From Vibrio tubiashii (GTDB taxonomy: Bacteria; Pseudomonadota; Gammaproteobacteria; Enterobacterales; Vibrionaceae): a stretch of DNA of 32,000 nt. The stretch lies in contig JRWQ01000001.1 of NCBI GenBank assembly GCA_000775715.1, positions 510,225-542,224 of the forward strand, given 5' to 3'. The notes beneath the pieces were generated by a model. It worked only from the letters and a program-made list of their open reading frames with translations. It searched no databases and was not told where the DNA came from. Position numbers and translations under genes: made by a program. Positions 27,315 to 28,915 of the stretch are shown piece by piece (within the stretch, counting starts at the first letter, position 1; each line of letters opens with the position of its first letter).

Positions 27315-27373
27315 ATTATTTTAATTATTATTTTCAATAACTTACTCTACATACCACTCTCTTAGATTTCATT

Positions 27374-27388
27374 TGGGTCATTTCTGTC
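27374..27388. promoter_or_regulatory. Motif copy 1: TGGGTCATTTCTGTC (candidate enhancer/UAS)
   Basis: Part of an 18-nt perfect direct repeat (27371-27388 = 27405-27422). It starts exactly 59 nt beyond the -24 element of the phnD promoter. Confidence 0.55.
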
Positions 27389-27407
27389 TAGCTGATGTGA
27401 TTCTATT

Positions 27408-27422
27408 TGGGTCATTTCTGTC
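27408..27422. promoter_or_regulatory. Motif copy 2: TGGGTCATTTCTGTC (candidate enhancer/UAS)
   Basis: Second copy, 34 bp from copy 1. With its flank it reads TGGGTCA-N4-TGTCCCA, an imperfect dyad. Confidence 0.55.
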
Positions 27423-27439
27423 CCAGTACCTTTGATGCT

Positions 27440-27462
27440 CAAAAAAGGGCTCGAAAGCCCTT
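27440..27462 (-). terminator. Rho-independent terminator after the GDPD gene
   Basis: The minus-strand RNA reads AAGGGCU-UUCG-AGCCCUU followed by UUUUGAG, ~40 nt after the stop at 27504. Confidence 0.8.
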
Positions 27463-27503
27463 ATATTATTTCGAAAAACATACGCGCTGAGACGTTGGTT
27501 CCT

Positions 27504-28715
27504 TTAGATATCCATACAGTTAGCGTAGTAAGTCACGGTAGAAGGCCAATCACTGAACACGCCCAGCACTCCAACATCTTGTGCCAAAACATCAAGTACG
27601 TTCATCATGTCACCATCTTGATTGATCTGTTCAGTCACCGTTTGATAGTACCAACCACCACCTTGCGCAAGCGGCCCTGAACGCTCCAACGTCCAAGCAA
27701 TAATGTCGAGATCAGCTTGTTTTGCCAGCTTGGCGTACTCAGACGCGACAATCGAATTGTTATCATCAAGCTGTATCAACGCATAAAGTGGCGGAGCGAT
27801 GATCTGCACGCCCTGTTTTGATAACGCTTTCATATTTTCTAAGGTTGCTGTGAAACCTTCTAAGTTGTACACGCGATCATCGAGATACACTGCTTGTTTG
27901 CCAAACTCAGGTTCATTGTTGATCCAGTACTTCACATCGTCGAGATTGAATGACTGAACATACGCATCTTTCGCAGAGAACCCTGCTGCTTTCAGCTCAT
28001 CAACCAGTTTCTGAGCGTACATCTCTTGGCTAAAGCCTTGATAAGGCATCTCAACTTTTGCTGACTTAAGCTCTGGAGTGACCTTTACGCCATGCTTTTT
28101 GAATAGTTCAGCACTTTCTGCATGGGTCATTAACGTACCTGTCTGCGAGTACAAATCAGTTCGCCAACCAGGTGTGCCACTCATGTACTCTTCAATAGTG
28201 GTCGCTTTCGGGTTTGCGCCATCCATTTTACCTTTAAGAGTTTTAAACTCCGCCAAAGTAAAATCAGAAGTACGGCACTCAACTTGCGCATCTTCACCCG
28301 TTTCTGGGTTAGCTGGCTTAAATGGTACCGAGCATTTCTTCGCTAGCTCTGGGTGAGCAAGAACATCCGTGGTGGTATGCAAGTCACTTTGTGAATGACG
28401 ACAGACAAGCTGTTTATCTTTAGTAAACGTAACATCGCACTCCAAAACCCCTGCCCCCATTGCAATCGCAGCCAAATAAGACTCCTTAGTATGCTCAGGA
28501 AATTGCATCGCCGCGCCGCGGTGGCCAATTGAAAAGTCACTGCGATAGAATGGGCCATCACTACAGCTTTCAAGCTTAGTTTTGAGCGGACTCTCTTCCA
28601 TATCACTCACGAGATAGATAGGGCGAGGGCCAACCTGCGCCGGTTCATTACCCGCCATGGCTATTGCGCTAACACCTAACAATAGAGCGATACTACTGGT
28701 TAAGATATGCTTCAT
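27504..28715 (-). CDS. Secreted glycerophosphodiester phosphodiesterase-family (GDPD) enzyme
   Basis: Start set to ATG 28715 (SD AAGGAGA), which gives the signal peptide [21 protein letters not shown]|G. GDPD motifs: [38 protein letters not shown] and C-terminal VFSDWP. The track start at 28853 would run through the promoter. Confidence 0.8.
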
Positions 28716-28825
28716 CTGTTGTTTCTCCTTGCAGCAAATAGTTATTAGTTTATGTCGCTCTGGCTTTATGAAGTTCTTACGCGTTAATGCAACTCCCTGA
28801 CTTCTCGCCAGAACCATAAGCAATT

Positions 28826-28841
28826 TGCACGCAACGTGCCA
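28826..28841 (-). promoter_or_regulatory. sigma54 (-24/-12) promoter of the GDPD gene: TGGCACGTTGCGTGCA
   Basis: The reverse complement of 28826-28841 gives TGGCACG-N4-GTGCA, ~110 nt upstream of ATG 28715. It shares the extended TTGGCACGT with the phnD promoter. Confidence 0.7.
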
Positions 28842-28900
28842 AAAACTTTTCACTTACAATTCAATCAGATAAACATCACAGGATTATTTAACTTCTGTGA

Positions 28901-28915
28901 TGGGTCAATTGTGTC
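28901..28915. promoter_or_regulatory. Motif copy 3: TGGGTCAATTGTGTC (candidate enhancer/UAS), overlapping the activator stop codon
   Basis: Matches copies 1 and 2 at 13 of 15 positions. It starts exactly 59 nt beyond the -24 element of the GDPD promoter, the same spacing as copy 1. An adjacent 8-bp inverted repeat, CATCACAG (28874-28881) / CTGTGATG (28895-28902), abuts it. Confidence 0.5.

Follow-up and report, generated by a model that had tools for sequence, protein, structure and literature searches.

Conserved 18-bp dyads, predicted activator sites of an NtrC-type regulator, precede two sigma-54-type promoters of a gpxB locus in Vibrio

Introduction

How is the expression of a gammaproteobacterial transporter of the GpxB type controlled? 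We addressed this question in a stretch of 32,000 nucleotides from a genome labelled Vibrio tubiashii (GCA_000775715.1, contig JRWQ01000001.1, positions 510,225 to 542,224), which was analyzed as a whole and is called the window in the following. It carries genes for a sensor histidine kinase, an NtrC-type response regulator, a phosphodiesterase of the GDPD family and an ATP-binding cassette (ABC) transporter of the order PhnD/C/E/E, all of them on the minus strand. GpxB was described in PNAS in December 2025 as a binding protein for glycerol-1-phosphate (G1P) and glycerol-3-phosphate (G3P), and in Phaeobacter it is induced by both compounds; Vibrionales are among the listed carriers, no regulator is described and the regulation is stated to be still to be investigated (PMC12718374). 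A first-pass annotation of the window had found a 15-nt motif in three copies close to two promoters and had proposed that these copies are upstream activator sites of the adjacent regulator. We followed this proposal within the window and across orthologous loci.

Results and Discussion

Three motif copies are the cores of dyads upstream of two promoters

Exact matches to TGGGTCAWTTSTGTC occur three times in the window, all on the plus strand and in one orientation (27374–27388, 27408–27422 and 28901–28915), as had been reported, and no further exact match is found in the 32 kb. By our own arithmetic, a 15-mer in which two positions are 2-fold degenerate would have about 2e-4 exact chance matches, counting both strands. 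An exact 18-nt direct repeat (27371–27388 and 27405–27422) with the claimed period of 34 bp encloses copies 1 and 2 and can be extended to 24 nt at 92% identity. The identical offset from both -24 elements was likewise confirmed: 59 nt separate a TGGCAC element from copy 1 (27315–27373) and from copy 3 (28842–28900).

Exact matches to TGGCAC-N6-TGC number just two in the window; they contain these TGGCAC elements and are located on the minus strand. The match at 27300–27314 (TGGCACGTCCCCTGC) is the predicted sigma-54 promoter of the gpxB operon with a start at about 27288, and the match at 28827–28841 (TGGCACGTTGCGTGC) is that of the GDPD gene with a predicted start at about 28815. Both have a -24 GG and a -12 GC at a spacing of 10 nt, and equivalent elements are present in 16 tabulated orthologous loci. 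Since a hairpin with a T run resembling an intrinsic terminator (27438–27465, hairpin 27445–27462, minus strand) lies 3' of the GDPD gene between the two units, this gene order places the motif copies upstream of two separate transcription units of the sigma-54 type.

Each copy forms the core of an imperfect 18-bp dyad, annotated on the minus strand like the promoters. In a numbering that sets the second G of the -24 GG to -24, the gpxB promoter carries a distal dyad at 27408–27425, which holds copy 2, reads TGGGTCATTTCTGTCCCA on the plus strand, matches the consensus given below at 13 of 14 positions and is centered at -128.5. The proximal dyad at 27374–27391 holds copy 1, matches at 10 of 14 positions and is centered at -94.5. 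The promoter of the GDPD gene has a single dyad at 28901–28918, also centered at -94.5, which holds copy 3.

The dyads occupy conserved positions in orthologous loci

A scan with the regulator protein against one genome per species yielded nine loci with kinase, regulator and PhnDCEE order, in which the regulators are 53–89% identical to that of the window, together with 71 loci with paralogous regulators and without Phn genes. Homologs of the binding protein led to seven more loci with kinase and regulator, from Vibrio japonicus, V. penaeicida, V. nigripulchritudo, Aliivibrio, Psychromonas, Marinomonas and Reinekea. The full set comprises 18 loci from at least 12 gammaproteobacterial genera: six Vibrio species, Aliivibrio, Veronia, Moritella, Psychromonas, Marinomonas, Reinekea, two Zobellella species, Oceanospirillum, Motiliproteus and two metagenome-assembled genomes (MAGs). 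All 18 loci with orthologous kinase and regulator show a dyad at the same distance from a GG-N10-GC promoter.

In the first-scan loci, matches to the 15-mer of the window with up to two mismatches are confined to two places, shortly after the regulator gene and ahead of the PhnD-like gene. When the 7-mers of the upstream regions were counted without bias, TGACCCA and TGGGACA ranked at the top. From 40 sites collected across the loci we derived the dyad consensus nnGGACA-N4-TG(A/T)CCCA, with G4, C6 and G13 invariant in all 40. Distant loci carry a clean palindrome, for example TGGGACAACCCTGTCCCA in Zobellella. Position 14 is A at all 23 sites of the Vibrionaceae/Moritella/Psychromonas group and mostly T (14 of 17) in the other group.

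The distances are kept within narrow limits. At gpxB promoters the proximal dyad is centered between -94.5 and -98.5 and the distal dyad between -127.5 and -131.5, Psychromonas excepted, and at phosphodiesterase promoters a single full dyad is centered at -94.5 or -96.5. The phosphodiesterase dyad of V. penaeicida (L082, 5428–5445) and V. nigripulchritudo (L083, 5421–5438) is located at -84.5, exactly 10 bp nearer to the promoter, and the leader of the gene measures 35–38 nt versus 100–115 nt. The dyad centers fall inside these bands (-94.5 to -98.5, -127.5 to -131.5, or -84.5) in 22 of the 23 tabulated gpxB and phosphodiesterase promoters, and the same layout is seen in L005 and L091. Vibrio sp. 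THAF190c shares this layout. Overall, the 18-bp dyads have their centers at -74 to -140, with positions conserved in at least 12 genera, which agrees with the range of about 70–150 bp upstream of the promoter known for activator sites of the NtrC class. Alternative positions are about 10–11 or about 33–34 bp apart, as face-of-the-helix constraints would produce. The phasing that had been taken as an argument for function is thus supported and can be extended to the positions -74.5, -84.5, -94.5, -128.5 and -139.5, about one helical turn apart.

In an alignment of eight gpxB promoters the invariant columns cluster in both dyads, a site resembling the consensus of integration host factor (IHF), the -24 and -12 elements and the ribosome-binding site, while the rest has diverged. 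An alignment of six GDPD promoters gives the same clustering in the dyad, an IHF-like element, -24, -12 and the ribosome-binding site, again with diverged sequence in between.

Some further sequences resemble the dyad. Look-alikes within coding sequence are present in the GDPD gene (28123–28140, peptide GTLMTH) and in the second permease gene (23901–23918, peptide WDINVR); they recur in the orthologs, probably because the peptides are conserved. As a second, distal dyad of the GDPD promoter the coding sequence of the regulator offered, by eye, only half-site look-alikes (GACA, peptide ..LDKDS..) at inconsistent distances, and this candidate was rejected. An Rfam scan of the window gave zero matches, and the 100-nt leader of the GDPD gene therefore holds no known riboswitch.

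The spacer is A+T-rich and carries IHF-like elements

The DNA between -85 and -28 has an A+T content of 72–79% in the promoters of the window versus 55% for the whole window. Across the promoters scanned the spacer reaches 67–86%, even in Zobellella, where the DNA of the locus has only 35% A+T. At the gpxB promoter the spacer contains TAAGTTATTGAAA (27332–27344, minus strand, -56 to -44), which differs from the IHF consensus YAANNNNTTGATW by one mismatch. The gpxB promoters of the window and of 8 of the 9 first-scan orthologs have such a match with at most one mismatch, in the same orientation and at -56 to -44 or -58 to -46. At the GDPD promoter a conserved element TATCTGATTGAAT (28859–28871, minus strand) occupies -56 to -44 and has two mismatches to the IHF consensus by our own count; its core TTATCTnnTTG is common to the five Vibrio loci of the six-locus alignment, and all six loci agree in five of its bases. 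The first-pass annotation had suggested that the AT-rich DNA could bind IHF or be bent. With consensus matches at about -51 and the high A+T content, a candidate IHF site or bent DNA between activator sites and promoter is supported, a feature that is frequent in this promoter class without being obligatory.

The motif tracks the regulator and not the transporter

Dyads with at least 12 of 14 consensus positions were found 12 times in 3.4 kb of orthologous regulatory DNA, 3 times in the other 116.5 kb of these loci and once in 882 kb from the 71 loci with paralogous regulators. No dyad was found upstream of gpxB in three loci without this regulator (L088, L089 and L090), and because gpxB loci lacking the regulator also lack the dyad, the motif tracks the regulator rather than the transporter.

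The three loci differ in their surroundings. In L088 (5421–6752) the gpxB operon has no two-component system and directly follows a gene of the Fe-ADH_2 family, a family that includes glycerol-1-phosphate dehydrogenases. In L089 (Ruegeria sp. TM1040, megaplasmid) and L090 (Pseudosulfitobacter pseudonitzschiae, pSMR1-1) the operon is divergent from genes for an OmpR-type regulator and a kinase, about 244 and about 830 aa long, and the intergenic regions share TGTAAYNCTGTTAACA-like repeats in place of the dyad. These alphaproteobacterial loci of the Roseobacter group appear to have recruited a different two-component system to the same transporter.

On the basis of this comparative evidence, namely the conserved positions and the co-occurrence with the regulator, we consider it quite likely that the dyads are upstream activator sequences of the adjacent NtrC-type regulator encoded at 28905–30263. 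The original proposal thus gains support from dyads in 18 of 18 orthologous loci and from their near absence elsewhere. The regulator would most likely switch on the GDPD gene and the operon for GpxB-type uptake of glycerol phosphate.

A mechanism can be envisaged as follows. Upon an external signal, presumably glycerophosphates or glycerophosphodiesters, the membrane kinase with its helical periplasmic sensor would phosphorylate the regulator. Regulator dimers would occupy the two dyads at the gpxB promoter (about -128 and about -95) and the one at the phosphodiesterase promoter (about -95). The A+T-rich spacer with the IHF-like site at about -51 would bend the DNA, permitting IHF-assisted looping, and the AAA+ ring assembled by the phosphorylated dimers would contact the sigma-54 holoenzyme at -24/-12 and open the promoter.

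Several observations weigh against these dyads being activator sites of the regulator. The -12 elements of the window are CTGC and GTGC and not TTGC. The GAFTGA loop of the regulator is present as the variant GSFTSA, which could influence the contact with sigma-54 or leave it unchanged; F and T are retained in the orthologs, which read GSFTGA, GAFTSA, GAFTGA or GSFTNA. Only one full dyad is found at the GDPD promoter, whereas two are often used by activators of the NtrC type. The gpxB promoter of Psychromonas is off the pattern, with the distal dyad at -139.5 and a degenerate proximal site. Moreover, the loci share descent, so that 18 loci do not amount to 18 independent observations, and the regions in which the enrichment was counted had contributed to the consensus itself; the 15-mer defined in the window alone already found the sites of L001–L008.

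Alternative explanations

The dyads could be operators of a factor encoded outside the locus, for example a global carbon or phosphorus regulator, while the adjacent regulator uses other, unrecognized sites. Such a factor would be compatible with a link between dyads and regulator that consists of co-occurrence. However, the motif is confined to loci with the kinase/regulator pair and is missing where gpxB is accompanied by other regulators, enhancer-binding proteins act from just such positions 75–140 bp upstream of sigma-54 promoters, and the two promoter alignments show no other upstream element of comparable conservation. We therefore regard an outside factor as improbable.

Still less probable, in our view, is that the regulator binds the dyads and mainly represses or insulates, for instance with copy 3 and an adjoining hairpin ending the kinase-regulator transcript. 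Two features speak for it, both already pointed out by the first-pass annotation. The TGA stop codon of the regulator (28905–28907, minus strand) falls within copy 3, and this copy abuts a perfect 8-bp inverted repeat with a 13-nt loop (28874–28902, minus strand; arms catcacag at 28874–28881 and ctgtgatg at 28895–28902), which lies between the dyad and the GDPD promoter. As RNA this repeat folds with -9.8 kcal/mol (z = -2.7), followed by UUUAU. Both features are present as described but find no support as functional elements. The overlap with the stop codon is peculiar to the genome of the window, the dyad of close relatives being located downstream of the stop codon, and the inverted repeat is not conserved in Vibrio sp. 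Hep-1b-8 or in other relatives, the closest one included. We accordingly rejected a role for this moderate hairpin. Furthermore, it is the spacing from the downstream promoter, not from the stop codon, that stays constant for the dyad.

The motif could also be a Pho box, by which PhoB would control these scavenging genes, given that the TGTC/GTCA cores resemble CTGTCAT and that the genes concern organophosphate uptake. In a Pho box, two 7-bp units similar to CTGTCAT are repeated directly with a period of 11 bp and overlap the -35 region of a sigma-70 promoter. In the dyads, the GTC cores are 9 bp apart, distant orthologs show the clean inverted repeat TGGGACA-N4-TGTCCCA, the sites lie at -95 and -128 of sigma-54-type promoters, and a scan for Pho boxes with up to 5 mismatches found nothing that coincides with the dyad sites. 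Symmetry, spacing and position thus rule against this reading, which we hold to be very improbable. Least probable of all are remnants of a dispersed repeat (of the repetitive extragenic palindrome type or resembling a miniature inverted-repeat transposable element) or of a local duplication without regulatory role: the exact repeat of copies 1 and 2 could be a recent duplication, but the window holds only three copies, all of them linked to promoters, their positions are conserved across genera while the flanks have diverged, and the 882 kb of control loci contain one comparable match.

The regulator belongs to a distinct subfamily

The protein proposed to bind the dyads is encoded at 28905–30263 on the minus strand and comprises the domains Response_reg, Sigma54_activat (AAA+) and HTH_8. 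Sigma54_activat is matched with E 6e-64 and contains the Walker A sequence GETGTGKE, and HTH_8, a C-terminal Fis-type helix-turn-helix (HTH), is matched at residues 397–437 with E 1.9e-9. The predicted recognition helix RKTLYRK(M/L)(K/R)K is kept in all 15 intact orthologs aligned. The residue preceding RKTLYRK is P in one group versus T or S in the other, a division whose match with dyad position 14 is broken by Marinomonas. Compared to the NCBIfam equivalogs the regulator reaches none of the cut-offs, scoring 384 of 559 bits for NtrC, 338 of 714 for AtoC, 333 of 763 for GlrR, 323 of 760 for ZraR and 301 of 650 for PgtA. By these sequence scores it is a member of a distinct, unnamed subfamily outside the NtrC, AtoC, GlrR, ZraR and PgtA groups. 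Its deposited name, 'C4-dicarboxylate ABC transporter' (KGY14324.1), is a misannotation.

In Veronia nyctiphanis (L003, 6001–7324) the frame of the regulator is interrupted. A stop codon follows after 90 residues and similarity resumes at 6365, with dyads and promoter intact. The interruption may represent a frameshift, a pseudogene or an assembly error.

The sensor kinase

The histidine kinase gene (30260–32000, minus strand) is cut by the end of the window, with about 72 N-terminal codons missing. In the protein, a helical periplasmic domain of about 265 residues lies between two transmembrane segments, and a HAMP domain is present as well. PgtB is the best NCBIfam match for the kinase core with 224 bits compared to a cut-off of 1000, the match covering the cytoplasmic part only. 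For the periplasmic domain (31250–31999, minus strand) no significant sequence match in Pfam or PDB was obtained. Its AlphaFold model, calculated from the single sequence, reached a predicted local distance difference test (pLDDT) score of 79, the other four models scoring about 50, and is all-helical and bimodular. The best fold match of this model is the sensor domain of TorS from the TorT complex, with template modeling (TM) scores of 0.63/0.59, and the ligand-binding domain of McpS follows almost as closely. On the strength of these modeled folds the kinase may sense its ligand directly or via a binding protein such as GpxB.

Taken further, kinase and regulator would constitute an undescribed sigma-54 two-component system for external glycerophosphates or glycerophosphodiesters in marine Gammaproteobacteria, in which a TorS-like sensor reads ligand-loaded GpxB as TorS reads TorT. 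We put this forward as a tentative idea that is rather unlikely to hold. If true, transport status would be directly coupled to the transcription of scavenging genes, for archaeal G1P as well as bacterial G3P lipid backbones.

Dyads are also located upstream of the kinase gene in Motiliproteus (L008, 3884–3901), Marinomonas (L086, 3405–3422) and Reinekea (L087, 3376–3393), each with 12 of 14 consensus positions and at -73.5 or -74.5. They are followed by TGGCAY-N5-TTTTC, which has an odd -12 element with TC for GC. This arrangement suggests autoregulation in these three genera. The equivalent upstream region of the V. tubiashii kinase lies past the end of the window.

Comparison to known two-component systems

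The closest parallel in layout is NtrB/NtrC at the enteric glnAp2 promoter, where NtrC sites lie near -108 and -140. Both cases combine a sigma-54-type promoter with two dyads about three helical turns apart and about 100–140 bp upstream, and NtrC has the same architecture of receiver, AAA+ and Fis-type HTH domains as the regulator of the window. The sites differ, NtrC recognizing TGCACC-N5-GGTGCA in contrast to nnGGACA-N4-TG(A/T)CCCA, and the regulator stays below the NtrC cut-off as given above. NtrB is cytoplasmic, whereas the kinase of the window is a membrane sensor, and the predicted targets are glycerophosphate-scavenging genes. This design is textbook NtrC class and will not surprise those who work on sigma-54; for this regulator and its sites, no earlier description was found in the literature covered by our searches.

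In Salmonella the membrane kinase PgtB with the NtrC-family regulator PgtA and PgtC induces the phosphoglycerate transporter gene pgtP upon external substrate. The combination of an NtrC-family regulator and a membrane kinase inducing an organophosphate transporter is alike, as is the match of the kinase core to PgtB. However, the scores of regulator and kinase lie far from the PgtA and PgtB cut-offs (301 of 650 and 224 of 1000 bits), and the transporter is a PhnD-family ABC system and not PgtP.

The arsenic-sensing systems AioX/AioS/AioR and ArrX/ArrS/ArrR couple a periplasmic binding protein of the PhnD family genetically to a two-component system of the sigma-54 type, and ArrX is among the PDB relatives of the binding protein of the window. 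AioX and ArrX are dedicated sensors, unlike the protein of the window, which is the substrate-binding subunit of a complete transporter and for which a sensing role of its own is speculation. Ligands and DNA motifs also differ. The TorT/TorS system for trimethylamine N-oxide is similar in that the periplasmic model of the kinase best matches the TorS sensor domain crystallized with TorT. On the other hand, sequence similarity is not detectable, McpS, a direct ligand binder, fits nearly equally well, and TorR is an OmpR-type regulator and not a sigma-54 activator. With GpxBACD (PMC12718374) the locus shares the transporter, since its regulated binding protein is close to Marinobacter GpxB, but not the regulation, the Roseobacter-group gpxB loci examined carrying an OmpR-type and the window an NtrC-type system.

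The predicted target genes point to glycerophosphate scavenging

The first predicted target (27504–28715, minus strand) encodes a GDPD-family phosphodiesterase of 403 aa, which is probably secreted judging from a hydrophobic N-terminus read by eye. The second is the operon at 23733–27252 on the minus strand, which encodes a gpxB-like PhnD-type binding protein (26212–27252), a PhnC ATPase (25324–26109) and two PhnE permeases (24536–25336 and 23733–24536). The binding protein matches GpxB of Marinobacter sp. (PDB 9lf9/9lfb) with E 1.3e-83. Ligand contacts of GpxB are T111, G112, Y138, S168, N169, S170, H199, R223 and T247 (PMC12718374), and 8 of these 9 residues are identical in the protein of the window, the ninth being T247S. 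On this sequence evidence it is a homolog of the G1P/G3P binding protein of the GpxB type, and the public annotation as 'phosphonate' binding protein or transporter is probably wrong for this clade.

The locus thus offers an uncharacterized two-component system linked to the newly described GpxB transporter, and with the kinase/regulator pair, the 18-bp operator consensus and two predicted sigma-54 promoters a concrete and testable regulatory model for gammaproteobacterial gpxB. The co-regulated phosphodiesterase, if secreted, would generate the substrate of the transporter. The consensus may be used for regulon prediction in Vibrio, Marinomonas, Reinekea and related genomes as well as in metagenomes.

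The two Zobellella loci (L004, 7497–8800, and L005) differ in the phosphodiesterase. The gene between regulator and gpxB is not orthologous to the 403-aa GDPD enzyme, a tblastn comparison giving no match at E 1e-10. By its sequence (IVVAHRGASGYLPEHTL) it looks like a canonical GlpQ. The same dyad precedes this gene with 14 of 14 consensus positions, at -96.5 of a sigma-54-type promoter. This looks like a non-orthologous replacement in one regulatory slot, and such a swap argues that the unit hydrolyzes glycerophosphodiesters extracellularly and imports glycerophosphate.

Several neighboring genes should be mentioned. The gpx operon is met at its end by a convergent gene for a HAD-IIB family hydrolase in the window (22534–23352, plus strand), in V. 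japonicus (L081, 10599–11384) and in Aliivibrio (L084, 10515–11312). This gene could encode a phosphatase for imported glycerophosphate; in the window we saw no dyad or sigma-54-type promoter preceding it. In Psychromonas (L085, 11086–14274) the gpx operon is followed by genes for a GlpD-like dehydrogenase (DAO and DAO_C), a DeoR-family regulator and a short GDPD of cytoplasmic type, in keeping with a function in the catabolism of glycerophosphate. An additional dyad with 11 of 14 consensus positions is located between gpxB and the ATPase gene in two Oceanospirillaceae MAGs (L007, 8762–8779, and L009, 9105–9122), which hints at an internal promoter.

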